Numbered from the stretch's first letter, positions 1 to 60,171 are shown. The stretch: 64,000 nucleotides of DNA from a bacterium (GCA_043736515.1 JAYTCK010000013.1:12214-76213), one strand, 5' to 3'. The notes: generated from the letters alone by a model not told the origin. Numbers and translations: made by a program.

Positions 1-2883
1 AGTACCCATCCACACCGCACTTGGTGCCACCACCGTCTCGTCCCCATCGAGCGTTGTAGAATTAATGCTGCGATCAAGCGTTGCGAGTTTGCATAATATA
101 ATCTGACATGAATAACGAATATCTTTAATAGTATCAACCCCCCACCCAGCAATCTGCACCACCTGCATTCCCGGAGGCGGCACCCATGCATCTATGGTTG
201 TGTGCATATCTCTCGCATTCGAAAGCAATGAATCCTTGAGCACGTTCGGAACATCACGCTCATTATCCGCAGGCTCACTCCATGTGCCACCTTGACCACG
301 GAGGAAGTATTCGAGTGCGGCTGCTGTGCTCACGGTCGTACTTGCAAGAGCATGTAATTCGCTTAACTCGCTCACGCTTTCATCAAAAATAATTACCGGA
401 GATTGCACCGTAGTGAAATAGTGTGCAGATGGAAGCAGATTGTACGCACTCGGCATATGCTCACCAAGCATTCGCGCTTCTTGTTTCGTGAGAATAATTC
501 CTGCACCAAGATTTGCTTCATCACCATGCAGCAAGCCGGCAATCGCCTTGGGTGTTCCTAACTGTGGTGCGGCAACCATAATAACAGTATCAATCTTCTT
601 TTCGAATGGATCATGATTTTCTGCCAATTTTGCAAGGAAGTATTTGGCGAGCAAGCCGCCATTTGAATGTGTGACGATGGTCACCTTGCCTGTATCGGAA
701 GTGCCCGCAAGGCGGTGAAGTTCCTGAATGAGAAATGGGGTTGTGGTGCTTTGGAGATATGAAACATATGCACCTGTTTTGTTGCCACTCTTTAATAATT
801 CAGGAAAATCAAGACGCCAGTCATACGGCAAAGCTTTCCATTCATTAATCATTCCGGCACCCACAACATCTTGCTTCATAAAATTAATAAAGTTTTTATA
901 GACGTTCACGCCATAGACTTCGTCAAGCACACTTTTTTCAGGTAATCCATCCAATGTGACAATATCAGTATTAATAGATGTGCCGTTGGGGTTGAGATAC
1001 AGTTGAGTGTTGTCACCGAATGTCGGAGGATCCCAGATTTGCGTTGCGGGAGAGGTGCTTGCGCGGAACAGTCGTGACGCCTCAAGTCCCGGCAAGAATG
1101 CAACATTCGAATATCCTGTTTTAAAGGAAAATTGATTTTCCGTGGCAGTTGGTATTGTTGTCGTTGCACCACCGACAGCGGCAGTGAAGGAGTAGTTGTA
1201 TGTGTGTTTTGCAAACGTGAGTGGATGATAATAACTGAAGAGTTCACCATTACGATAGTCCCCGTCTTTGAGTGTTGTTGATGCAGTTGTTGTGTCTCGA
1301 GTGAGCGCCATGATTGTGGGGATCGATGATACCGGATTTGCAACCTCAAACACAGGAATAACCGTAGCGGTTATATTCTCCGGTGCACGATTCCCTGCGT
1401 CAGTATAAATAACAGAAAACGTGAAATGCGTTTTCCCTGCAGTGCCCTTGTGATCCTGAATCCCGTCATCTTCATAGAGACCTTTGAGAGTGTCGGTGGC
1501 AAAGGAAAGTCTGGGTACTTGAATGACAAGAGCTTTCCACCCATCCTTCACCGTCCATGGGAGGTTGTCCTGTCCGATCGTGTACATGCGAGGTGTATCA
1601 CAAAAACCATCCGTGTTTGAATCATTGCATCCCTCTGGTGGTGTATCGAACGTATCCCAGTAATTGCCACCATTTGGATTAGCTATATGAAACACGTTTC
1701 CCACACCGGCGTAATTCACGGCGTGCGCCCCATTATTCAAAAAATTATTATTATAGACTTGATTCCCTATTGCAGGGGAGAAAATCATAAGCCCCGTGTT
1801 TTGATTGTCTCGTATCGTATTCTCGTGCACCACATTGTTGGATGAAGTAAAGAAGAGCACTCCTTGGTATGTACGAGAAATGTTGTTGGACAGGAAACTG
1901 TTGTTGTTTGAATTAAAGAGAAGTATCCCTTGATATACATCGGAAACACTATTGGATATAAAACGATTATTATTCGAACCAGAGTAGAGCAGGACTCCTT
2001 GATGTCCTGGGCGTCTTTCGAGAGTTCCTAGGTTAATCGCATTGTTTTCAAATAAATTATCAAGAGAACTGAAGAGCGCAAATCCTTGATTGCGATAGAT
2101 TACCGGAACAGTGAGCAACACGGTGTTCCCTGTTATTGTGTTCGCACTTGAAGAGTAAAAGACTATTGCCTGATAGTCATTGTTAGTGAAGTTATTATTC
2201 ACGATATGGTTGCTTAATGAACTGAATGCACTCACGCCATAAGAAAAATTACTAATCTGGAGGTTCTTGAGGGTGACATTTGTTCTGCCATTCAAATACA
2301 CCCCAGAGCCGGTATGGGATCCCGAGAGCGTGAAATTATTTCCATCAAGTGTGATGTTGTCGGAATCGATCTGGACGGTTTCGGAGAGATTTTGTGTAAG
2401 GGTGCAGATTTTTGTAATGTTGTCCCATATTCCCACAACAATACAATCTCCGCCCGTTGCATCGTCGCGGATGAACTTGGTGCTTTTGTGCGGTTGGATG
2501 AAGATGACATGGGGAATTAGGATATCTTGCGTGTATGAATATATACCCCTTTCGTCAGTATTGAATTGAGTGAGATTGTGATAGCTATCTTCGTATTTGT
2601 AGTATGTGGTGTTTGGAAGAAAGCCACCCATAGAGATGGTGGTCGCAGTGGAAGAGGAAGTCGTCGCATCGATCATGAGTGTCACAATGTTTGGAACAGA
2701 TTCGAGGCGGAGATCTATAAGTGCGGAACTTTGGAGGGTGATGTTGAGATAGTCACTGTCGGTGATGACAAAGTGTGTGCCCTCATCTTGGATCGTGCCC
2801 GGGGGGTTGATTGTTTCGGCGGAAGCAACACCGTGCATGAGCAAAGAAAGAAAGATCGACAGGGTGAAAATAATGCCACGCAT
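1..2883 (-). CDS. Large secreted protein, N-terminus at 2883, running off the window start (>960 aa). Signal peptide MRGIIFTLSIFLSLLMHGVASA, then right-handed parallel beta-helix repeats (NNNFTNNDYQAIVFYSS..., SNSVSDVYQGILLFNSNNNSF...), then a C-terminal alpha/beta-hydrolase (lipase/LCAT/PGAP1-like) region with nucleophile elbow VTIVTHSNGG
   Basis: Manual reverse-complement translation from the CAT at 2881-2883. The frame stayed open at spot checks 2761-2883, 1441-1500 and 961-1020. It is not in the ORF track because it is edge-truncated. Domain calls are from motif recognition only. Confidence 0.6.
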   Translation of the reverse strand, partial: MRGIIFTLSIFLSLLMHGVASAETINPPGTIQDEGTHFVITDSDYLNITLQSSALIDLRLESVPNIVTLMIDATTSSSTATTISMGGFLPNTTYYKYEDSYHNLTQFNTDERGIYSYTQDILIPHVIFIQPHKSTKFIRDDATGGDCIVVGIWDNITKICTLTQNLSETVQIDSDNITLDGNNFTLSGSHTGSGVYLNGRTNVTLKNLQISNFSYGVSAFSSLSNHIVNNNFTNNDYQAIVFYSSSANTITGNTVLLTVPVIYRNQGFALFSSLDNLFENNAINLGTLERRPGHQGVLLYSGSNNNRFISNSVSDVYQGILLFNSNNNSFLSNNISRTYQGVLFFTSSNNVVHENTIRDNQNTGLMIFSPAIGNQVYNNNFLNNGAHAVNYAGVGNVFHIANPNGGNYWDTFDTPPEGCNDSNTDGFCDTPRMYTIGQDNLPWTVKDGWKALVIQVPRLSFATDTLKGLYEDDGIQDHKGTAGKTHFTFSVIYTDAGNRAPENITATVIPVFEVANPVSSIPTIMALTRDTTTASTTLKDGDYRNGELFSYYHPLTFAKHTYNYSFTAAVGGATTTIPTATENQFSFKTGYSNVAFLPGLEASRLFRASTSPATQIWDPPTFGDNTQLYLNPNGTSINTDIVTLDGLPEKSVLDEVYGVNVYKNFINFMKQDVVGAGMINEWKALPYDWRLDFPELLKSGNKTGAYVSYLQSTTTPFLIQELHRLAGTSDTGKVTIVTHSNGGLLAKYFLAKLAENHDPFEKKIDTVIMVAAPQLGTPKAIAGLLHGDEANLGAGIILTKQEARMLGEHMPSAYNLLPSAHYFTTVQSPVIIFDESVSELSELHALASTTVSTAAALEYFLRGQGGTWSEPADNERDVPNVLKDSLLSNARDMHTTIDAWVPPPGMQVVQIAGWGVDTIKDIRYSCQIILCKLATLDRSINSTTLDGDETVVAPSAVWMGT

Positions 2884-3334: not shown

Positions 3335-4141
3335 ATGGATCAGAAGGCAGAGAGTGGGGATGGGCACACGAAGAGTGACGAGTACTTCAGGGCACTGAAC
3401 GACCTCACGAGAAGATATCACCTCCCAGGAAATTTCGATCGCCATACTCGATGTTACGTTGAAATGGGAATGATCTCCTGGCCAGTCAACAGCTTCGACA
3501 TAACGCCAGTGGGATTCCCTGCTCGTTCGTTTAGGTTGAACATCTATCTCCTCCTGCGTAATCCCTTCTATTATGGTGAATTTGAATATCCGATGGGGAG
3601 TGGTAATTGGTATCCCGGCAAACAAACACCCATTATCACCAAGGAACTTTTCGATAGAGTGCAGTCATCTCTTCAAGATCACTACATTCCAAAAACGGAA
3701 AGCAGGGAGTTCGCCTTCACGAAGCTCATTAAATGCGGGTACTGCGAGAGTGGCATCACCGCCGACGAAAAATTCAAGAGACTCAAAGACGGAGGAACAA
3801 ATCGGCATGTCTATTATATGTGCACCAAGGGCAAGGGTGTGGAGTGCAAGAATGCGCCGATCAATGAGAAAGACCTAATCGAAGAATTGACTGGGCTACT
3901 CGACACCATCGACCTCGACGAGATCGGAATGAGGTCAAAGATCGAGGACGAAATGGCCCGCTATAATAAATTCCGTATCGGCGTGCTCGGACTGAAAACG
4001 AAAGAGCGCAATACCGATGTCGATGTGCGCAACTACGCAAAGTACCTGCTCAAAGATGGCACGCTAACCGAGAAGCGCGAGCTACTGGTATGCCTCAAGA
4101 GTCAGCTCATTCTGAAAGATCGAAAAGTATCACTGCAATAG
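3335..4141 (+). pseudogene. C-terminal fragment of a large serine recombinase. It has the recombinase-domain tail (NPFYYGEFEY), a zinc ribbon (KCGYCESGITADE ... YYMCTKGKGVECKN) and a coiled coil. The N-terminal resolvase catalytic domain is absent
   Basis: ORF-track protein of 268 aa. No catalytic-domain sequence upstream at 3100-3334, which holds only a short unrelated ORF. Adjacent to tRNA-Gly and a duplicated tRNA fragment. Confidence 0.55.
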
Positions 4142-4263: not shown

Positions 4264-4337
4264 TGGTGCGGGATGGGAGAATCGAACTCCCACCAGAAGT
4301 TTGGAAAACTCCTATTCTACCATTAAACTAATCCCGC
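4264..4337 (-). tRNA. tRNA-Gly(UCC), CCA encoded
   Basis: Reverse complement GCGGGATTAGTTTAATGGTAGAATAGGAGTTTTCCAAACTTCTGGTGGGAGTTCGATTCTCCCATCCCGCACCA. Acceptor GCGGGAT/ATCCCGC, anticodon loop TTTCCAA, T-arm GGGAG-TTCGATT-CTCCC. Confidence 0.85.
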
Positions 4338-4385
4338 ATTATTGTCTTTTGCCTCACGATTCTCGAATCGAACCTCTTACAGAGG

Positions 4386-4474
4386 CTGTATACCTTTTGG
4401 ATTTTTCAGAAAAAACCTCAAAAGGTCTTGCGCTCTGGCTCCCGCAAAGCCGGGTTCCCAAATGCCAGAGCTCA
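4386..4474 (+). repeat. tRNA-associated structured repeat, copy A (~90 nt). Followed at 4475-4523 by an exact duplicate of the first 49 nt of tRNA-Gly(UCC)
   Basis: CTGTATACCTTTTGGATTTTTCAGAAAAAACCTCAAAAGGTCTTGCGCTCTGGCTCCCGCAAAGCCGGGTTCCCAAATGCCAGAGCTCA aligns with copies at 26783-26870 and 30203-30289. Compensatory changes in two stems. Confidence 0.7.
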
Positions 4475-4620
4475 CCCACCAGAAGTTTGGAAAACTCCTA
4501 TTCTACCATTAAACTAATCCCGCTTGCTTATTGTGAGACTTTCGTATCCTAGCAAATTGACAACAAGGTGGCAACGGGGAAAAATGAGTAGAGATGCACT
4601 TTTTATAATAAGGATGGGTC

Positions 4621-15101: not shown

Positions 15102-16097
15102 TTAAAACTCCCAAAAAGAAAGAATCTGCTGCTTTAAGCCATGAGCATTCCCATGACTCAAGAGTCCAAGATAGGAATTGATTGTTTCTGCCTTGCCTTT
15201 TTTTGCTCTGATCCCCCGAAGCATTCTTTTCTTCGTCGCTGTTCGCAGTACACGATGATCGGGAAAATGCACCCACCCAAGAAAGTCCACGCCGGATGCG
15301 AATGCCCGAAGCGACACCTTGTTGGGATGAAGTTCCAATTTCAACATTTCCCCCAAAAACTCTTCAATGCGTGGTAGCAGAGTTTCAAGCAGACTTTTGT
15401 CTTCCGAAAAAAAGACAAAATCATCCGCATAACGAATATAATATTTTGCTTTGAGTGTATGCTTTACAAATTGATCAAATTCGTTCATGTAGATATTCAC
15501 CAAGAGTTGGGAGGTCAGATTACCGAGTGGAAGACCCTTCCCGGGTGCGGTGCTCTCAAAGCTTTCAATCACACGCAGAAGCAACCAAAGAATATCTTGG
15601 TTCGTAATATATTTTTTAAAAATACTCATCAATATCTCCTGATCAATCGAAGCAAAAAATTTGCGAATATCACACTTCAGCACCCAGCATGTCCGTGTGT
15701 GATTCTGAGAGACTTTGTATCCAAGAGCACGGAACCGATCAATTGCTCTGTGTGTCCCCTTTCCTTCACGACAGGAATACGAGTCTGCGATAAACATGCG
15801 ATCAAAGTAGGGATAGAGAATGCGGTAGATGGCATGATGTAGCAATCGGTCGCGCACTGAAGCTTTGTGGATATTGCGCGGTTTGGGGTCGGAGATATTG
15901 AAGGCGTAATATTCACCATGGCGATAGGTCTTCCCTTTCAGATCGGCATGCAAACAAAAAACGTGGTCTGACAATTGATACTGAAATTCCTGCACATCAC
16001 TCTTTTTTCTCTTTCCCTTTAAGAATCCTCTCCACGCCGCGAGCAAATTTTCCACAGAAATGATATCCTCATATGTATGAATGAACTGAATACCCAT
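15102..16097 (-). CDS. Diversity-generating retroelement (DGR) reverse transcriptase
   Basis: YADDFVFF catalytic box. The DGR-specific LGNLTSQ motif replaces the canonical QGxxxSP. N-terminus ENLLAAWRGFLKGKRKK. ORF track starts at TTG 16133. ATG 16097 is more likely. Confidence 0.85.
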   Translation of the reverse strand: MGIQFIHTYEDIISVENLLAAWRGFLKGKRKKSDVQEFQYQLSDHVFCLHADLKGKTYRHGEYYAFNISDPKPRNIHKASVRDRLLHHAIYRILYPYFDRMFIADSYSCREGKGTHRAIDRFRALGYKVSQNHTRTCWVLKCDIRKFFASIDQEILMSIFKKYITNQDILWLLLRVIESFESTAPGKGLPLGNLTSQLLVNIYMNEFDQFVKHTLKAKYYIRYADDFVFFSEDKSLLETLLPRIEEFLGEMLKLELHPNKVSLRAFASGVDFLGWVHFPDHRVLRTATKKRMLRGIRAKKGKAETINSYLGLLSHGNAHGLKQQILSFWEF

Positions 16098-16110
16098 ACA
16101 CCAAAGGTTA

Positions 16111-16120
16111 CCCCCCCCCC
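16111..16120. repeat. Homopolymeric C10/G10 tract between the divergent avd and RT starts
   Basis: ACCCCCCCCCCG on the + strand, 13 nt upstream of RT ATG 16097 on the minus strand. Confidence 0.8.
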
Positions 16121-16154
16121 GAGCATTTTGCAACCCAAACTCATCCCAGTTGTT

Positions 16155-16508
16155 TTGAAATTAAAAGACACTTACGGAGTGTGGCAAAACTATCTCAACC
16201 ACTTTCCCAAGGCCAATCGTTTTACCCTTGGATCAAAAATTGACGACGTATTTCTTGGAGCAATTGAGTATTGCTTTCTAGCAAGTTACGCATCCGCCGG
16301 TGACAAACTCATATTTATCGACAAAGCGATATCGCGGGTCGATCTCATAAAATTGCTTTTGCAACTCGCGTGGGATATTCAGGCGCTTGATACGAAAAAA
16401 TATGTTCACCTATCGGAATATTTAGCGGAGAGCGGAAAGATGCTGGGTGGATGGCGACGACAAATTGCAAACAAAACTCCCGAGACTATTGCTCGGGAGA
16501 AATTATAA
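16155..16508 (+). CDS. avd: Avd-like accessory variability determinant (four-helix-bundle DGR protein)
   Basis: About 117 aa from a TTG start (the ORF track extends to ATG 16077, which would overlap the RT start). C-terminal GKMLGGW motif typical of bAvd. Lies between RT and TR, but on the opposite strand to RT, TR and target. Confidence 0.55.
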   Translation: MKLKDTYGVWQNYLNHFPKANRFTLGSKIDDVFLGAIEYCFLASYASAGDKLIFIDKAISRVDLIKLLLQLAWDIQALDTKKYVHLSEYLAESGKMLGGWRRQIANKTPETIAREKL

Positions 16509-16513
16509 GAGTA

Positions 16514-16642
16514 GCGAACCCCAAGGAAACGGTAGTTGCCATTCCAGTCATCGTTCCGCCAGTTGAGGTTGAGGTTGCGCTTCGAGCCATTCCTGTACAG
16601 ATACGGTACGTTCCGATTGCCGTTCACCTTCGCGACCGAACC
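16514..16642 (-). repeat. DGR template repeat (TR), 129 bp
   Basis: Identical to VR 16990-17118 except at 15 positions. All 15 are T on the + strand (A on the coding/minus strand) in TR, against C/A/G in VR. Read in frame, the TR encodes Asn (AAC) at the variable positions. Confidence 0.85.
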
Positions 16643-16903
16643 CTGTGCAGTAGGTCATCCTCACCACCACCCCTTGAACTTTCACAGACGGCGCCATCCG
16701 CGAATACATTCTCGAGATTGTATCGTATTTGTGATCTTTTTATCACCAATCCTACTGCGCCAACTTTTTCAATTTTTTAACAATCTTATGCAACTCTCCC
16801 TGCAATCGTAACCGCAAGAATTCTCGGCATAAGCGTTGCGGACAAATTATTCACAGCCGTAACCGTGAATTTTTCATTTATCATGATTACTATATCAAAA
16901 AAA

Positions 16904-16926
16904 GTCCCGCACGAAACGTGCGGGAC
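16904..16926. promoter_or_regulatory. GC-rich hairpin downstream of VR (DGR hairpin/cruciform-like element)
   Basis: GTCCCGCAC-GAAAC-GTGCGGGAC, perfect 9-bp stem, about 50 nt 3' of the target-gene stop. Confidence 0.6.
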
Positions 16927-16974
16927 AAGGGTCCAAGGTACAAAGGGTCAAAGTGCGGACCCAAGGAGCGAGAG

Positions 16975-17571
16975 TCAGAGTGCGGAGTTGCGAACCCCAA
17001 GGAAACGGTAGTCGCCAAACCAGTCAGCGTCCCGCCAGCCGAGGCTGAGGTCGCGCTCCGAGCCATCCCTGCACAGATACGGTACGTCCCGACTGCCGTC
17101 CACCTTCGCGACCGAACCGAGAGCAACGATCGGGAACTTACGTTGCTCTTCGGGGTTTGCAGCGGCGGAGGCGAGCAAGTGTTCGATCTTCCCGGGTTGA
17201 TAGCCCTCGGCGATAATCAGGCGTTCGGCTTCGTCCGCTGAGACGACACGATCGAAGTGGAAAAGCTTGCGCTCGACCACCACGATACCAGAGCCGACGA
17301 CGGAAAAGCGTTTGGTGGTGATGTCGCTGTTGGTCCAGTCGTAGCGTCCGGCGGCGATCATTTGTTCGAGGGTGAGGGCGTAGTTGATGGCGAGGCGGGT
17401 GCCGCCACTCACTTCTTGTGGCGGATTGAGTCCCGCAAGGAACTTCTTCACATGCGTGAGGATATTCCCCTCCGAGAGACTCTTGACGTCGGCCGGAGTC
17501 CAGCCGTTACGCTCGAGTGCGTGATCAAGCTCCGCTGCTTGACGGGAAGACATAACAAACTTGTCGCTCAT
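16975..17571 (-). CDS. DGR target protein (198 aa) with a C-terminal variable repeat (VR 16990-17118)
   Basis: C-terminus ...DVPYLCRDGSERDLSLGWRDADWFGDYRFLGVRNSAL is encoded by the VR. Only 4 codons follow the VR before the stop. Confidence 0.8.
   Translation of the reverse strand: MSDKFVMSSRQAAELDHALERNGWTPADVKSLSEGNILTHVKKFLAGLNPPQEVSGGTRLAINYALTLEQMIAAGRYDWTNSDITTKRFSVVGSGIVVVERKLFHFDRVVSADEAERLIIAEGYQPGKIEHLLASAAANPEEQRKFPIVALGSVAKVDGSRDVPYLCRDGSERDLSLGWRDADWFGDYRFLGVRNSAL
16990..17118 (-). repeat. DGR variable repeat (VR)
   Basis: See the TR entry. Adenine-specific TR/VR mismatch pattern. Confidence 0.85.
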
Positions 17572-26464: not shown

Positions 26465-26585
26465 ATGCGCCGGGAATTTCTCGCCTTACAGGCGCAGTAC
26501 CCCTTTCCCATTTCTGAGGATTCAGAAATCCTCAGAAATATGGGAGAAGGGCTTCGAATCCCGACGAAAGGCACGCAGGTGCCTT

Positions 26586-26648
26586 TCTCGCCCCGACAAT
26601 ATGAAAAAAGAACCTTCATTAGGTTCTTTTTTTATATTGTCGGGGCGC
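26586..26648. terminator. Long nested perfect hairpin abutting or overlapping the tRNA-Pro 3' end
   Basis: GCCCCGACAATAT-[GAAAAAAGAACCT TCAT TAGGTTCTTTTTT]-ATATTGTCGGGGC. Confidence 0.5.
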
Positions 26649-26712
26649 CGGGATTCGAACCCGGAGTCGCTCGCTCCCAAAGCGAGAATGTTAGCCGTTA
26701 CACCACGCCCCG
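26640..26712 (-). tRNA. tRNA-Pro(UGG), no encoded CCA
   Basis: Reverse complement CGGGGCGTGGTGTAACGGCTAACATTCTCGCTTTGGGAGCGAGCGACTCCGGGTTCGAATCCCGGCGCCCCGA. Anticodon loop TTTGGGA. Confidence 0.85.
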
Positions 26713-26782
26713 TATATTTACTACCTTGTGACACACGCTCATTTCGCACAAGCACTGAGTGTTAGCCGTCTCCGTACCGGAG

Positions 26783-26870
26783 CTGTACACCTTTTGGATT
26801 TTTCGGAAAAAACCTCAAAAGGTCTTGCGGTGTGGCTCCCATAGGAATGGGTTCCCTTTTGCCACACCTC
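26783..26870 (+). repeat. tRNA-associated structured repeat, copy B. Followed at 26871-26883 by a duplicate of the first 13 nt of tRNA-Pro. A D-loop fragment (TGTTAGCCGT) lies on the other side at 26760-26769
   Basis: CTGTACACCTTTTGGATTTTTCGGAAAAAACCTCAAAAGGTCTTGCGGTGTGGCTCCCATAGGAATGGGTTCCCTTTTGCCACACCTC. Confidence 0.7.
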
Positions 26871-26943
26871 ACACCACGCCCCGTTAAACAACAAAACGCT
26901 CATCTGAGCGTTTTGAGTATAGCAGATAGTGAAACAAAGACAA

Positions 26944-28095
26944 TCAGAAGTTGCGGAATACGTCTCGGGCCATATCGCGAGAAGTTGTGTATCTCATTTT
27001 TGCCATATCCATATTTAACTTCTCGATTTGAGTCCTTATTTGTGCTTGCTTTATATTCTTACGGTCAATTTGGTCATATATATTCGCGACCCCATGTTCG
27101 GCTCTCAAGCTTTTTGTATCTCTACGGACTTCGTCCTTCACCGTCTTTATTTCCGTCGTTGCATCAAGACGAATCTCCTGCTCATTTAATTTAGCAATTT
27201 GGGCTTCATATCTTGCCTGTTCGGCGGCCGAGGGGTTGGGCTTGGAAAGAAATGCTGCCCGCGCCTCTGCCCGCTGGGTTTTCAGTTGCGCCTTGCTTAC
27301 ATCATACCTTGCTTCCATTTGCATGGGTTGGGTTCTGTTCTCTACACGTGACTCAACCTCGGCAATTCGGGAATTTCCGCCTGCTCGTAACAATAGCTCC
27401 TCTTTTTCTCTATCTAGCTTCTCATGCTGCATCGCAAGATTTTGTTGCTGTTGTTGCATACGTTCAATTCGTTGTCCTCCTTGCACTCCACGCTCAATTG
27501 GACGGATAACGCCTCCTTCAATTGTTTTTCCAAGTCTTGGATTTTGAGCTCCGACAACACCGGCCACTACAGGGATAAAGTCAACATAGCCCGCCGCTTC
27601 TGCATTGTCGGTGTGCGAAAAAGCCGCAATTGCGACCACTACGCCGGTAGTTACATGACGCACAGCTTTAAGCGATCCATTCATTAATTTCTTTAACAGA
27701 CCACTGCTTTGCTCAGCTTTTTCCGCATTCTCTGGGCTCTCCACAGCAGCAAAAGTACCGCCCACTGCTGCAACACGAGCAGCTTGGTTTGATTTTCCTT
27801 CCACATCGAGGGCATTAAGCGCCATCGCTTCGGTTCCCTCCCCTACCTCTGCCGCTAACCCTTGATTCTCTGGAGTAAGATTGGTAAATTCCATAACTGC
27901 ATTTTGTGTGGCAGGTGGAAGTTCTGACATTTCTATAATCTCAATTGATTCAGAGTCTGGAGACTCATTAAGATTAGTGACATCAGATATACCGCTCTCC
28001 TTCTCTGCCTCTGATATATGTACCGGAATTATGTCTTCGTGAATCACAACTCCTTCCTCCTCGGGTATTTCGAAACTTTGGAATTTCTCGCTCAT
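26944..28095 (-). CDS. Hypothetical coiled-coil protein (Q/E/K-rich)
   Basis: Long heptad-like region (MQQQQQNLAMQHEKLDREKEELL...). No catalytic motifs. Confidence 0.4.
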   Translation of the reverse strand: MSEKFQSFEIPEEEGVVIHEDIIPVHISEAEKESGISDVTNLNESPDSESIEIIEMSELPPATQNAVMEFTNLTPENQGLAAEVGEGTEAMALNALDVEGKSNQAARVAAVGGTFAAVESPENAEKAEQSSGLLKKLMNGSLKAVRHVTTGVVVAIAAFSHTDNAEAAGYVDFIPVVAGVVGAQNPRLGKTIEGGVIRPIERGVQGGQRIERMQQQQQNLAMQHEKLDREKEELLLRAGGNSRIAEVESRVENRTQPMQMEARYDVSKAQLKTQRAEARAAFLSKPNPSAAEQARYEAQIAKLNEQEIRLDATTEIKTVKDEVRRDTKSLRAEHGVANIYDQIDRKNIKQAQIRTQIEKLNMDMAKMRYTTSRDMARDVFRNF

Positions 28096-28104
28096 ATAAA
28101 AATA

Positions 28105-28383
28105 TTACGCTAATGCTTCTTCGTATTCACGACGCTCTTGCTTCACAATTTCGTGAAGCTTTTTTAAATTTCCCTGAGCATCGAGCTTTTTCTTCAAATT
28201 TTTTACAATCGCATCGATACCAAACGGATCTTCCTCGCAGACTTGTATAAACATCAGGAGCATCACGTCGGCCACAAACGGAATTCGTCCAGAAAGAATT
28301 TTTTTATCTTCAGCAGGAATATGCGATTGTTCAACAATTGCAGTTGCTTTTTCAGTCAGTTCCTTGCGTGATTGTTCTATCAT
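28105..28383 (-). CDS. Small hypothetical protein
   Basis: ORF only. Confidence 0.3.
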   Translation of the reverse strand: MIEQSRKELTEKATAIVEQSHIPAEDKKILSGRIPFVADVMLLMFIQVCEEDPFGIDAIVKNLKKKLDAQGNLKKLHEIVKQERREYEEALA

Positions 28384-28704
28384 ATATACATTAATACTAT
28401 ATCACAATTTTAATATAAAGCAAATCCTAGCCAGGCTTTTCTGACTAAGTTTTATACAGGACAGTATACCACCAGAACTTTTTCTTACATATGTAATTTA
28501 TTTAACTGAGGAGCGCCGCACAAAACATTAGGTAGGCCTGACCGATCAATATCTTACGAATTACTATAAAAAACGTTTCACGTGAAACGTTTTATGTATT
28601 TGTTGTGTTTCACGTGCTACCAAATTGGCAAGAAATGAACACTTTGTTAATTAAATATAAAACACCATCTCGTTACACATGAAACTAACTATCGCGCACA
28701 ATCA

Positions 28705-29100
28705 CTACAAAATGACATCATGAATTACATTTACTCGTGCAGTTTTGTTAAAAGCGTTCAATTCTATAGTAATTACATCAAACTGCCAGTCTTCGGAAAC
28801 ATTATATTCGAAAATATATGCTTGGATTGTGCGGCCAATACTCTGAAGCTTTGATTTGTGTACATTATCTTCCGGGCGGTAATTATCAAGTTTCTCCCCT
28901 AATGTTCCACGTGTAACAGTTTTCACCTCAACAAAGTGCAAGCGTTGATTTTTCCTGCAAATAACATCAATCTCTCCATACTTTTTTAAGTAATTTCGCT
29001 CAGCTATCGAAAAACCTTGTTTCACAAGAAACCTAACTGCAATATCCTCACCAATTTGGCCAACTTTTTGTTTTTCTGTTTTTTCACCCATTTCTCCCAT
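28705..29100 (-). CDS. yraN: YraN-family (UPF0102) endonuclease-like protein
   Basis: GQIGEDIAVRFLVKQGFSIAERNYLKKYGEIDVICRKNQRLHFVEVKT. Confidence 0.75.
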   Translation of the reverse strand: MGEMGEKTEKQKVGQIGEDIAVRFLVKQGFSIAERNYLKKYGEIDVICRKNQRLHFVEVKTVTRGTLGEKLDNYRPEDNVHKSKLQSIGRTIQAYIFEYNVSEDWQFDVITIELNAFNKTARVNVIHDVIL

Positions 29101-29605
29101 ACTAATCTAAAACCGTTCCACATGAAACATTCTCAAACACAGAACGGCATGGTACGGCAATTAAGCCGGCATACGCACTGTGCCAATCAGCAATGAAACT
29201 TCCTGGCAATGTTCCACGTGTAACATCTGATTGCCACGATCATGTCTCTTCTGAAATGCTTGGCTTTTTATGATTTATTAGACTTTTTTAAAAAATCCTT
29301 CGCGAAGCTATCCACTGTTTAAAAACCCGCGCTTTATCCTGCGAGGTTCAACCTCGTAGGATGTTATATAAAGCCTAATTCTTGAAGGAATACTGACTAT
29401 TAAAAGAGGTCTCATGTGTAGCTGCCATAAAAACTGAGCCGAAGCACTGAGGGTAGTGTCTGTGTATAAACATGTGGATAGTGTGCATAAAGGACACTCA
29501 AGGACACAATTTTGTCCTTTATAAACACTATACACAGGGTTATCCACAGTTGTGCGCACAGGAGGTGACAAAAAGCGCGAGTTGCTATTTAATTAGAAAA
29601 GAGCC

Positions 29606-30007
29606 TTGCCGTATGGAGGTATTGTGGAAAACAGACTGAAAGTTTTGGTTGTTGAAGATGATTCTGATCTTCAAGATGCCTACCGAATGAGCCTTGAGCA
29701 TCTTGTAGACGTTGTCACTGCCGGCAGTATTTCCTCAGCAATGACTGCGCTGCGACGTGAAAAAAAGTTTTCGCTTATTATTCTCGATGGGAATGTCCCA
29801 CGGCGCGATAATGAGCCTTTGATGCAGACGACGGTTGAACTTGCACAACACATCTCGTTTGTACTTGGCATCCCCATGATTTCCGCTTCCGGCGACGAGA
29901 AATTAAACGACATACTTGTCTGCAGAGGCTGTATACGAGCAGACAAGTTCACTGCTGTTCAAGAAGCGGAGAGGTTCCTTGCGGGAATTAATGCCAAAAT
30001 AACCTAG
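29606..30007 (+). CDS. Receiver-domain-like protein (degenerate response regulator)
   Basis: KVLVVEDDSDLQD, LIILDGNVP. Confidence 0.5.
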   Translation: MPYGGIVENRLKVLVVEDDSDLQDAYRMSLEHLVDVVTAGSISSAMTALRREKKFSLIILDGNVPRRDNEPLMQTTVELAQHISFVLGIPMISASGDEKLNDILVCRGCIRADKFTAVQEAERFLAGINAKIT

Positions 30008-30040: not shown

Positions 30041-30150
30041 TTTATTGGTCTTTCATTAGCAAAATTGGCGGGAGGAGGATCGTCGTTAATTTGCCATTTC
30101 AAATAAGATTCGCTAGTATATGGCGACACGCTGAGCATAAAAATGCGCTT

Positions 30151-30202
30151 GCGGGTATGGTTTAGTGGTAGAATACGTCCTTGCCAAGGATGAGACGGGA
30201 GT
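30151..30202 (+). pseudogene. Exact duplicate of the first 52 nt of tRNA-Gly(GCC), ending in the T-stem. Interrupted by repeat copy C
   Basis: GCGGGTATGGTTTAGTGGTAGAATACGTCCTTGCCAAGGATGAGACGGGAGT is identical to 30345-30396. Confidence 0.75.
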
Positions 30203-30289
30203 GAGGTGTGGCTACTGGGAACCCATTCTGATGGGGCCACACCGCAAGACCTTTTGAGGTTTTTTCTGAAAAATCCAAAAGGTGTACAG
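30203..30289 (-). repeat. tRNA-associated structured repeat, copy C. Inverse orientation on the + strand, but in the same orientation relative to its tRNA as copies A and B
   Basis: Reverse complement CTGTACACCTTTTGGATTTTTCAGAAAAAACCTCAAAAGGTCTTGCGGTGTGGCCCCATCAGAATGGGTTCCCAGTAGCCACACCTC. Confidence 0.7.
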
Positions 30290-30344
30290 GTCCTGTAGGG
30301 ACCGATTCTCCCTAAATGAGGAATCGCGGTACAATATAAAAAAT

Positions 30345-30415
30345 GCGGGTATGGTTTAGTGGTAGAATACGTCCTTGCCAAGGATGAGACGGGAGTTCGA
30401 TTCTCCCTACCCGCA
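30345..30415 (+). tRNA. tRNA-Gly(GCC), no encoded CCA
   Basis: GCGGGTATGGTTTAGTGGTAGAATACGTCCTTGCCAAGGATGAGACGGGAGTTCGATTCTCCCTACCCGCA. Anticodon loop TTGCCAA. A TACAAT -10-like box lies at 30329-30334. Confidence 0.85.
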
Positions 30416-30459
30416 CAAATACAAAAATACCGCCGCCGCAAGGCGGTATTTTGTATTTG
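30416..30459 (+). terminator. Long perfect hairpin immediately 3' of tRNA-Gly(GCC)
   Basis: CAAATACAAAAATACCGCC-GCCGCAA-GGCGGTATTTTGTATTTG. Confidence 0.6.
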
Positions 30460-30706
30460 TGCGGGTAAGAAGTGCCCCACGGCACTTCGTGGGAGAATCG
30501 AAGCCGTTCTCCCATAATTTTAAGCGACAACCGCTGTCGTTTAAAATTGGGAAACGGGTACTGCGCCTGTAAGGCGAGATTCTCATATTTAAGTACCTGC
30601 GGAAGTAATCGGCGATTCTCCCTAGTTATGCCTGCTTAATGCGTAGTTGGCGATTCTTTGATTTTTTGTCAACTGCGCGCTATAGTTGGCCTATTATATA
30701 GACGAC

Positions 30707-38432: not shown

Positions 38433-38502
38433 GGTCGTTCCTCGGCTTTGAGAGGTGCGACCTTGAAGAAGCTGGCCGTTTTTTGCGGTACTGCTCGATA
38501 AG

Positions 38503-38562
38503 CGGCAGCCAACTTCTCCGAGGTACGACCTCCCAAGGCTGAGGTCGGACCTCAAGCTGCCT
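38503..38562. repeat. Palindromic REP-like repeat, family copy 1. A degenerate half copy precedes it at 38433-38462
   Basis: GCGGCAGCCAACTTCTCCGAGGTACGACCTCCCAAGGCTGAGGTCGGACCTCAAGCTGCC. Other copies at 59577-59630, 60111-60171 and in-CDS at 59441-59484. Confidence 0.8.
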
Positions 38563-58784: not shown

Positions 58785-59552
58785 ATGGCAACAGATTTTA
58801 ACAACCTTCCTCAAGCAATAAAAGACTTACTTCTCTCCGAGAAGCTTGTTGATGACGTTGAAGGTATCGCTAAGCATCATGGGCTACGCCCTGAGGAATA
58901 TGGCTTGCTCCTTCGTGCGACTACTCAACTCCTTGAGGGCAACATGCCCGCAACAGAATACATGGCTTCTCTTGTTGGTGAATTAGATCTCTCTCGTGAA
59001 AAAGCTGCGCTTGTGGCTCAGGACATTAATCAGAATATTTTTAACCCTGTCAAAGAAGAGCTGAAGCAAGTTCATGCAGTAAATGGAGCGAAAGATGGGG
59101 TTACACCACCACAACCTCTCCCTAAGGTCGCATCGAGTTCACACCTCTCCTCAAATCCTGTTGCTACAGCAACACCGGCACCTCTTCCCAAGCTTTCCGA
59201 AATTGCAGCCGCCTACACCGGCAAAACGGAAAAGCCAATGCCGCCCCAAAGTCCTCCGTTATCTGCCCCCTCCCAAAGTATTTTTGAGCAGAAAATGGGG
59301 GGGACATTTCGCATGAAAAGCGATACCACAAGTCACGCCGGGAGTGTGCCGCCACAGGGGGCAGCTAACTTCACCACAGGAGTACTTCCAAATTTCAGTA
59401 CTCGAGGACTCGATGAAATTTCTGGTCGCTCCGAGGTACGACCACCCAAAGCTGAGGTCGGACCCCAGTCTGCCCCCACATCGTCTAGTGCTGTTATGCC
59501 GAACCCCGGCACGTCATCCAAGGTTGACCCGTACCGAGAAGCGACAGGCTAA
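58785..59552 (+). CDS. Hypothetical Pro/Ser-rich protein. Its C-terminus is encoded by a REP-like repeat copy
   Basis: ORF only. The repeat at 59441-59484 encodes ...RSEVRPPKAEVGPQSA. Confidence 0.35.
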   Translation: MATDFNNLPQAIKDLLLSEKLVDDVEGIAKHHGLRPEEYGLLLRATTQLLEGNMPATEYMASLVGELDLSREKAALVAQDINQNIFNPVKEELKQVHAVNGAKDGVTPPQPLPKVASSSHLSSNPVATATPAPLPKLSEIAAAYTGKTEKPMPPQSPPLSAPSQSIFEQKMGGTFRMKSDTTSHAGSVPPQGAANFTTGVLPNFSTRGLDEISGRSEVRPPKAEVGPQSAPTSSSAVMPNPGTSSKVDPYREATG

Positions 59553-59576
59553 TAAAATGTGCAGAGAGTATCAGTT

Positions 59577-59630
59577 CAGCCAACTCCTTCGAGGTCCGAC
59601 CTTTCAAAGCCAAGGTCGGACCTCAGGCTG
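59577..59630. repeat. Palindromic REP-like repeat, family copy (variant)
   Basis: CAGCCAACTCCTTCGAGGTCCGACCTTTCAAAGCCAAGGTCGGACCTCAGGCTG. Confidence 0.75.
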
Positions 59631-59663
59631 ATCAGTCACTGCTAACAACCACTCCCTACTTAT

Positions 59664-60110: not shown

Positions 60111-60171
60111 GCGGCAGCCAGCTTCTCCGAGGTCCGACCTCCCAAAGCTGAGGTCGGACCTCGGGCTGCCG
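60111..60171. repeat. Palindromic REP-like repeat, family copy
   Basis: GCGGCAGCCAGCTTCTCCGAGGTCCGACCTCCCAAAGCTGAGGTCGGACCTCGGGCTGCCG. Confidence 0.8.

Follow-up and report, generated by a model that had tools for sequence, protein, structure and literature searches.

A small folded element within a partial tRNA-Pro duplicate: an insertion-like footprint with loss of two target nucleotides

In a 64,000-nt stretch of bacterial DNA, referred to here as the window and numbered from its first letter, two pieces of a truncated tRNA-Pro copy lie on the tRNA strand and in tRNA order, with a 102-nt element that we call E (26770-26871) between them. The observation in the initial annotation, that an element is flanked here by split pieces of a tRNA-Pro copy, is confirmed, and its reading as an insertion is supported with small corrections. 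On balance, and without strong confidence, we lean toward regarding E as a discrete non-coding insertion element, non-autonomous and mobile or recently so, which occurs in genomes of the Patescibacteria (candidate phyla radiation, CPR) type, lands after a G and replaces two nucleotides of its target.

On the minus strand, the locus reads CGGGGCGTGGTG (26883-26872), E (26871-26770), ACGGCTAACAC (26769-26759), a 46-nt spacer and then the intact tRNA-Pro(UGG) gene starting CGGGGCGTGGTGTAACGGCTAACAT (26639/26640-26712, called by both ARAGORN and Rfam). The acceptor and D-stem piece lies where it was first reported: CGGGGCGTGGTGT at 26871-26883(-) is an exact match to tRNA-Pro positions 1-13, and this 13-mer occurs exactly twice in the 64-kb window, there and at 26700-26712(-), which is the start of the intact gene, against a chance expectation of 0.00. 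The D-loop piece is also a genuine tRNA-Pro match, although it had been placed one base off, at 26760-26770: ACGGCTAACAC (ACGGCTAACAc) at 26759-26769(-) is identical to positions 15-25 at 10 of 11 bases, and the 10-mer ACGGCTAACA is found in the window only in tRNA-Pro and at 26760-26769 (0.11 expected). At the last base of this piece, C replaces the T of tRNA-Pro, so that a G-C pair takes the place of the G10-U25 wobble in the D-stem. The partial duplicate covers tRNA-Pro 1-25 and stops at 26759, truncated after the D-arm just as had been described, and E stands in the D-loop in place of nucleotides 13-14 (U13-A14) rather than between them, as was originally proposed. Because every copy of E starts with T, the simplest description is tRNA-Pro 1-12, then E replacing U13-A14, and then resumption at A15; the exact left match is 12 nt ending at position 12, the exact right match is 10 nt from position 15, and two nucleotides are skipped. 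The intact gene, said to follow 55 nt away, does follow, at 46 nt from the D-arm piece and 57 nt from E.

Chance similarity or an assembly artifact, to which we give negligible weight, is already refuted by the 13-mer expectation, by the identical structure in L038, which was assembled independently, and in L018, which belongs to another species, and by at least 12 analogous junctions elsewhere. The identity of the flanks to tRNA-Pro, the point on which the insertion reading could have been refuted, is kept in L018 and is not due to chance.

Table 1. Coordinates of E, its relative E2 and the associated tRNA features in the window
Feature	Position	Strand	Basis
Sigma-70-like promoter TTGTCT-16-TGcTATACT	26916..26943	-	consensus scan; upstream of partial tRNA copy
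Hairpin followed by T-rich tail	26892..26915	-	pattern scan
Partial tRNA-Pro copy, positions 1-12 (13 counting the first T of E)	26872..26883	-	exact match
E copy B, 102 nt	26770..26871	-	covariance-model match, 119.7 bits; covariation
Resumed tRNA-Pro copy, positions 15-25 (D-loop and 3' strand of D-stem), where the copy stops	26759..26769	-	10/11
46-nt spacer between truncated copy and intact tRNA-Pro	26713..26758	-	homologous to L018 spacer and to region upstream of L018 partial copy
Intact tRNA-Pro(UGG)	26639..26712	-	ARAGORN, Rfam
Palindrome with 27-nt arms: tRNA-Pro 3' end, trailer, terminator hairpin and their inverted copy	26589..26647		96% complementary
E2, divergent E relative without P1, downstream of tRNA-Pro	26482..26564	-	covariance model, 25.6 bits, E-value 2e-4
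tRNA-Gly(UCC) positions 1-49 at copy A	4475..4523	-	repeat comparison, exact 49/49
E copy A, replacing tRNA positions 50-51 (AG)	4373..4474	-	covariance model, 115.4 bits
tRNA resumption at copy A, TTCGATTC	4365-4372	-	junction analysis
Intact tRNA-Gly(UCC), copy A upstream	4264..4337	-	tRNA call
tRNA-Gly(GCC) positions 1-51 at copy C	30151..30201	+	repeat comparison, exact; 53/53 including 1 nt upstream
E copy C, replacing T-loop positions 52-53 by sequential count (TT)	30202..30302	+	covariance model, 116.4 bits
tRNA resumption at copy C, CGATTCTCCCTA	30303-30314	+	junction analysis
Intact tRNA-Gly(GCC), copy C upstream	30345..30416	+	tRNA call
E2 downstream of tRNA-Gly(GCC)	30498..30576	+	covariance model, 20.7 bits, E-value 3.5e-3; 94% identical to tRNA-Pro E2

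E is a discrete folded element of about 101-102 nt with sharp and constant ends, which are TGAG on the 5' side and the end of hairpin P3 on the 3' side. In copy B, TGAG is followed by P1 (with an inner GGGAACCC hairpin), CGCAAGA, P2 (CCTTTTGAGGTTTTTTC CGA AAAATCCAAAAGG), TGTACAG and P3 (CTCCG GTA CGGAG), and an alignment of 25 copies gives the consensus TGAG, P1, CGCAAGA, P2, GGTGTACAG, P3, with the architecture constant and all canonical copies full length. P1 has 7-10 bp and closes an asymmetric loop with an invariant GGGAA and a variable inner hairpin, P2 is a long A/U-rich hairpin, and P3 is a 5-bp helix with a GUA triloop. Covariation supports this fold: P1 and P3 contain 62 double-compensatory cells versus 12.4 in shuffles, a count that none of 500 shuffles reached, and 98.3% of their cells are paired, as opposed to 33-58% once the partners are slid. 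A G-U pair in P2 that is conserved in 23 of the 25 copies indicates that the fold belongs to the tRNA-sense strand. Part of the invariance of P2 is an ascertainment artifact, as copies were retrieved by 20-mer scans with a P2 word. Where E contains extra sequence, this is found only at hairpin tips or junctions, namely in the P2 loop (L001, L024 and L034) and at the P2-P3 junction (L008 and L033).

The covariance-model search that had been recommended as a check detected three copies in the window, A, B and C, with the scores given in Table 1. About 25 further copies come from Saccharibacteria, Lloydbacteria and unclassified metagenome-assembled genomes (MAGs) or metagenome contigs, exact 20-mer scans having matched one Saccharibacteria MAG, one Lloydbacteria MAG, three unclassified MAGs and 25 metagenome contigs. 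From this distribution of E, from a diversity-generating retroelement in the window and from the genes present, we infer that the window itself belongs to a CPR genome. E was found neither in viral contigs by two exact-word scans, nor in phage records by BLAST of the whole block, nor in plasmid records by BLAST of E alone. At the gathering score, Rfam (Rfam 15) matched tRNAs only in the whole window and left E unmatched, and at an E-value of <=10 over 26600-27000 nothing overlapped E. A search of the literature on CPR tRNAs, structured RNAs and repeats, and for sequence strings of E, returned group I intron papers and unrelated primer matches only and no description of E, and the family appears to be undescribed in the resources searched.

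Several simple identities for E were rejected. A small ORF is not supported, as the ATG of the inner P1 hairpin is not conserved, and the helix order and conserved motifs, judged by eye only, do not fit the topology of HDV-like, hammerhead or twister ribozymes. Guide-like complementarity is countered by the differences in P1 and P3 between the window and L018 orthologues despite their having the same target. A degenerate target duplication formed by the 3' strand of P3 was ruled out on comparing copies B, C and A, and an integron attC-like or dif-like site, which is resembled only in the match of G/TGAGGT to G/TTRRRY, is contradicted by the 2-nt loss.

The anatomy of copy B recurs at other tRNA genes. 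When canonical copies with a readable target were scored, at least 12 copies had the tRNA-linked layout tRNA(1..x), E, tRNA(x+3..x+8-13), spacer and intact tRNA. Exactly two target nucleotides are lost at each well-defined junction, the resumed arm measures 8-13 nt, and the left flank always ends in G, mostly as GNG (GAG, GGG or GTG in most copies), after which E starts with T. The missing nucleotides are TA at window copy B, L018, L009 and L001, CA at L023a, L026 and L007, TT at window copy C, AG at window copy A, TG at L012, AA at L023b and CG at L028. A target-site duplication, for which it had been advised to search the ends of E, is absent, and the 12 junctions have the 2-nt loss instead. 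Insertion points are tRNA positions 5, 7, 12 or 17/18 (D-loop), 38 (anticodon loop) and 49-51 (T-arm), and the targets outside the window are Pro, Gly, Leu, Ser, Asn, Ile and Glu tRNAs, to which the window adds tRNA-Gly(UCC) and tRNA-Gly(GCC). In tRNA-Pro(GGG), E is located at position 38 in L023 and L032 and in the D-loop in L030, and these different positions imply independent events. Three copies (L023b, L028 and L001) are antisense to the tRNA and follow the same 2-nt rule, the ratio of sense to antisense being about 16:3; in L001, an intact tRNA-Ile sits within the P2 loop of E.

One end of the partial duplicate coincides with a tRNA terminus, usually the 5' start and only in L001 the 3' end, and the other lies 8-13 nt beyond E; an intact tRNA copy is present nearby, downstream of the duplicate except in L001. 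The partial copies usually start at mature tRNA +1 or within 1-2 nt of it, while in L018 and L025 the duplication reaches 12-30 nt upstream of +1. E has been seen at essential tRNA genes only inside partial duplicates. Within the non-tRNA repeat families H (L016 and L029) and R3 (L011 and L014), E is simply inserted, and past it the target goes on to its end; an empty R3 paralogue in L040 reads GACGGGG-TA-GCGAGCAC, and its counterpart in L011 reads GCCGGGG-E-GCGAACAC. The truncation and the adjacent intact copy are therefore specific to tRNA targets, as expected from selection on an essential gene.

Related genomes provide both filled and empty alleles of the tRNA-Pro locus. L018 is syntenic with the window (ORF, tRNA-Pro, CheW), and its coding DNA is about 80% identical, so that it represents a different species. 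Its layout is tRNA-Pro 1-12, E, ACGGCTAACAT (11/11), spacer and tRNA-Pro, with about 30 nt upstream of tRNA-Pro likewise duplicated, and its E has a different P1 (GCTCTGGC/GCCAGAGC), inner hairpin and P3 (CGTCT/AGACG), with pairing kept in all of them. An identical 383-aa neighbor protein is encoded on L036, L037 and L038; L038 has the form seen in the window, and L036 and L037, which derive from the same strain in two other sequencing runs or samples, lack exactly a 171-bp block, placing the upstream hairpin directly before the intact tRNA-Pro. The filled and empty alleles differ by 157 nt plus one copy of a 14-nt direct repeat, ACGGGGCGTGGTGT. The empty allele is either ancestral or the product of a deletion between the 14-nt repeats, and deletion is more parsimonious, and the likelier of the two, because L018 is filled as well. 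An insertion has thus not been observed directly, but whichever direction applies, the 171-bp block behaves as one unit that can be gained or lost. Copies A and C yielded no empty allele, since the contigs L039 and L043 are broken at the repeat and L040-L042 lack synteny there.

The ability of the block to be lost precisely between repeats would also be expected if it were the scar of a tRNA-targeting integrative element, in which the partial 5' copy is attL, the intact tRNA is attR and E is the conserved end of an island whose interior was deleted, resembling a cis-mobilizable or miniature integrative element. The order of 5' fragment, foreign DNA and full tRNA is known from tRNA integration, as in the tRNA-Thr fragment of Caldiarchaeum, which arose from integration into a tRNA gene (PMC3293823; general discussion in PMC9897764), repeat-mediated loss is possible in both cases, tRNA direct repeats of 12-51 nt flank the block, and a truncated serine recombinase gene at 3335-4141 adjoins copy A. 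Nevertheless, we consider this explanation very unlikely, because an att scar consists of an uninterrupted tRNA segment followed by element DNA, whereas here tRNA identity is broken by E and then resumes at x+3 for 8-13 nt. Moreover, the foreign DNA amounts to only about 150 nt without genes, one element is shared by many tRNAs and positions (at least seven tRNA identities, each of which would need a matching attP), the simple insertions of E in non-tRNA repeats have no repeat flanks, and an integrase is linked to no E copy.

A divergent relative of E bears on how the junctions may have formed. This relative, E2, has no P1 and the layout AAGNCC, P2', GGKGTACWG, P3, gives only weak covariance-model matches, and is found downstream of tRNAs in L012, L025 and L026 as well as in the window. 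On one side of E2 is an inverted copy of the tRNA 3' part, and on the other a T-loop/T-stem piece in direct orientation. Its flank contains the T-loop as a reverse complement (ATTCGAA, AATCGAA or ACTTGAA); upstream of this come a small hairpin and, beyond that, the acceptor strand, inverted and forming part of a palindrome with 24-27-nt arms. In L018, the region equivalent to that of the tRNA-Pro E2 holds a canonical E, which replaces two nucleotides (AT) of the inverted T-arm piece. Palindromes with arms of 24-27 nt are present in the window at 26589-26647 and 30403-30472, each centered on a terminator hairpin across which the 3' acceptor strand and trailer of tRNA-Pro or tRNA-Gly(GCC) are inverted, and similar ones are found in L012, L025 and L026.

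In the mechanism that we propose, a single DNA-level process, serial template switching (copy-choice) while tRNA genes are replicated or repaired, would produce both the insertion and the partial duplication. E, which lands after a G, usually the last of a GNG, in tRNA genes and other small structured repeats, would be copied in from another copy; synthesis would then resume on the target two nucleotides further on, continue for about one helical turn, and finally slip back to recopy the intact gene. Serial template switching is proposed because the direct-inverted-direct tRNA 3' pieces around E2, the palindromic filler after some junctions and the resumed arm of 8-13 nt resemble it. It is an inference from junction anatomy only, and the inserting enzyme is unidentified: the window ORFs scanned (64 kb only) included no transposase or HUH gene and no HUH Y1/RAYT gene.

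Small structured repeats with which E can be compared are REPIN/REP sequences, the PATE derived from IS200/IS605, Rickettsia palindromic elements and the double-hairpin elements of fungal mitochondria. Like repeats of the REPIN/PATE type, E is a non-coding, multi-copy and non-autonomous sequence of about 100 nt with strand-specific hairpins that show compensatory change, it has no terminal inverted repeats or target duplication, and it is found nested with other small repeat families and in RNA genes. Unlike them, it replaces two target nucleotides, recognizes no motif beyond G or GNG, is strongly directed to tRNAs, where it always lies within a partial gene duplicate, and has a core that is near-identical across distant CPR lineages, and no RAYT/TnpA gene was seen in the 64 kb scanned. 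Strand-specific hairpins at or near both ends without duplication, which are expected of an IS200/IS605-type PATE or REPIN, are present in E: P1 begins at nucleotide 1, P3 finishes at the last nucleotide, G-U pairs occur on one strand only and there is no target duplication. Insertion 3' of a specific, unchanged target of 4-5 nt is not observed, as E has only G/GNG and two nucleotides are lost. PATE/REPIN thus fits best as a comparison in style, though the 2-nt loss and the loose target set E apart. A MITE derived from a DDE transposase was rejected for lack of terminal inverted repeats, the 5' end (TGAGGTGTGGC) being unrelated to the reverse complement of the 3' end (CTCCGTACCGGAGCTG) and the hairpins internal, and for lack of a target duplication of fixed length, 12 junctions having lost two nucleotides instead.

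Group I introns occur in tRNAs of Patescibacteria (PMC13011429), and transposed bulge-helix-bulge introns of Thermoproteales are a topic listed in PMC4090602, which is cited here for that listing alone. Like mobile tRNA introns, which in archaea occupy several tRNA positions, E is a conserved sequence found within tRNA genes of lineages known to be rich in introns. It differs from them in that the interrupted copy is truncated and lacks two nucleotides, so that no tRNA is possible, and an intact tRNA gene is adjacent. A group I intron is excluded by size (101-102 nt compared with more than about 200 nt) and by the absence of an Rfam Intron_gpI match at an E-value of <=10, and for both group I and bulge-helix-bulge introns there are no complete, joinable exons, the 3' part ending after 8-13 nt with two nucleotides missing.

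Consensus scans placed sigma-70-like sites upstream of the partial copies at B (26943-26916), C (30091-30119) and A (4574-4546). The site at copy B is probably the native tRNA-Pro promoter, and in the empty alleles L036 and L037 the equivalent promoter-like region directly precedes the intact tRNA-Pro; the hairpin between this site and the partial copy may belong to the leader or may terminate the upstream ORF. A pattern scan predicted no terminator-like site between E and the intact tRNA at copies A, B or C. These pattern matches, for which there are no transcription data, suggest that the block, from tRNA(1..x) through E and the resumed arm to the spacer, may be transcribed as a pre-tRNA 5' leader, and the promoter-like sites further suggest that RNase P would still free a normal tRNA and tRNA supply would be kept. 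The earlier statement that the footprint sets the element apart from a simple leader is right in that the anatomy indicates an insertion with a defined target rule and is a poor fit to a leader alone, but it does not remove the possibility that the block serves as such a leader. A cis-regulatory tRNA leader or riboswitch-like element was rejected, since no terminator-like expression platform lies between E and the tRNA, its position is not fixed, and E also occurs in non-tRNA repeats, antisense to tRNAs and downstream of them.

The compensatory upkeep of the E fold across species could mean a host RNA function rather than selfish DNA. On such an account E would be a structured RNA with a host function, such as a module for leader activity or processing, or else a small RNA that is stable, expressed from tRNA promoters and freed by RNase P cutting the downstream tRNA. 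The tRNA fragments would be tolerated or used as a scaffold; the D-stem at copy B and the T-stem at copy C, for example, can close around E. The strand-specific fold with strong covariation, the confinement of extra sequence to hairpin tips and junctions, the promoter-like sites, the linkage of all five window copies of E and E2 to tRNAs, and the change that makes the D-stem around copy B a perfect Watson-Crick helix all agree with it. Against it, some copies of E reside in non-tRNA repeats or ahead of protein-coding genes (L004, L005, L010, L016 and L033), three are oriented antisense to their tRNA, and contigs of the same strain lack the tRNA-Pro block. Helices that could close around E are missing from copy A and from the anticodon-loop insertions and so are no general feature, and the constant 2-nt loss and variable positions are left unexplained. 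We regard a host function as unlikely.

The bias toward the sense strand fits a role or mobility at the RNA level as well as it fits the DNA-level process that we prefer. In a process resembling that of SINEs or R2, E would be co-transcribed from a hijacked tRNA promoter, reverse transcribed, for example by the reverse transcriptase of the diversity-generating retroelement (DGR) type that these genomes contain, and inserted by target-primed synthesis or template jumping. R2-type retrotransposons and the SINEs of eukaryotes share with E the use of highly transcribed RNA genes as targets, co-transcription, a small target deletion (2 bp upon R2 insertion) and, for SINEs, a tRNA-derived head joined to a body. 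Consistent with such a route are the start of most partial copies at or near tRNA +1, the position of E in a probable transcribed leader, the constant 2-nt target deletion, a DGR reverse transcriptase gene in the window (15102-16133) and the existence of the E2 subfamily without the 5' module. However, E has a bacterial host and a tRNA head that matches the local gene, no endonuclease-reverse transcriptase was found, DGR reverse transcriptases are template-specific, and canonical copies are full length, without randomly truncated 5' ends and without tails, A-rich or otherwise. The antisense insertions obey the same rule, and the duplication extends 12-30 nt upstream of +1 in L018 and L025. We consider movement via RNA improbable, and equally improbable, though mentioned here as a speculation, is a new bacterial mobile RNA element, which would hijack tRNA promoters, be released as a compact and possibly catalytic RNA, and be copied back at tRNA genes by reverse transcription or template jumping with a fixed 2-nt loss; if true, it would be a prokaryotic counterpart of SINE/R2 biology and could explain split or intron-bearing tRNA genes.

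If E is the insertion element that it appears to be, it stands for a family of small structured elements that has not been described before and is common to widely differing CPR bacteria, with a precise signature at tRNA genes, that is, insertion after a G, replacement of two nucleotides and a partial duplicate left behind. It would then offer a concrete and testable case of tRNA genes gaining interruptions and fragments, which has hitherto been discussed mainly in archaea, and would draw attention to a systematic origin of tRNA pseudo-fragments in annotated CPR genomes. The compact, conserved P1-P2-P3 RNA fold with its invariant linker motifs is a basis for seeking a partner enzyme or activity.

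Other repeats and mobile-element remnants occur in the window and in related sequences. The serine recombinase beside tRNA-Gly(UCC) and copy A is a truncated large enzyme with the Recombinase and zinc-ribbon domains only and may be the remnant of an integrated element. A DGR extends over 15102-17571(-) and comprises the reverse transcriptase ORF, a template repeat (16509-16649) and a variable repeat (16985-17125) at the 3' end of an ORF at 16975-17571; over 141 nt, 17 of 19 mismatches fall at template adenines. Repeat family H is a long nested hairpin of about 60 nt (GGCAGCC..GAGGTCCGACCTC..GGCTGCC), with copies at 38502-38561, 59415-59474, 59573-59632 and 60111-60170, and its loop holds E in L016, L024, L029 and L013/L027. 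Repeat K (CGACCAAAAATTTCATCGAGTCCTCGAGTACT...) is inserted in an H copy of the window at about 59385-59415 and in the P2 loop of E in L024 (3400-3470), L013 and L027; K within H and within E means that several small element families nest in each other. Repeat R3 (..CGGGG-NN-GCGARCAC..AAAGACTTAGTGAYTCGTG..) lies at 1290-1600 of L040, a relative of the window organism, between tRNA-Arg and the gene for the CCA-adding enzyme; it is also found in L011 and L014, and it is inserted inside E in L008 and L033.

The region around 28000-30000 is the probable replication origin, with the minimum of cumulative GC skew, a drop in GC content to 0.39 and a change of coding strand from minus on the left to plus on the right. 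Copies B and C flank this region as an inverted pair, 93% complementary and 3.4 kb apart. At 5020-5170 of L025, D-loop position 20 of a tRNA-Asn gene is followed by a second insert, which is unrelated and about 100 nt long; past this insert the tRNA restarts at position 4, and the acceptor stem of the final copy is poor (ATTCCGG). At 1600-1800(-) of L022, an older tRNA-Leu copy is split into a 5' part, which bears E, and a 3' part with the T-arm and acceptor; a complete tRNA-Leu with short flanks lies between the two, and the older copy has outer flanks that are complementary to each other (TGCAGCGAGT / ACTCGCTGCA).
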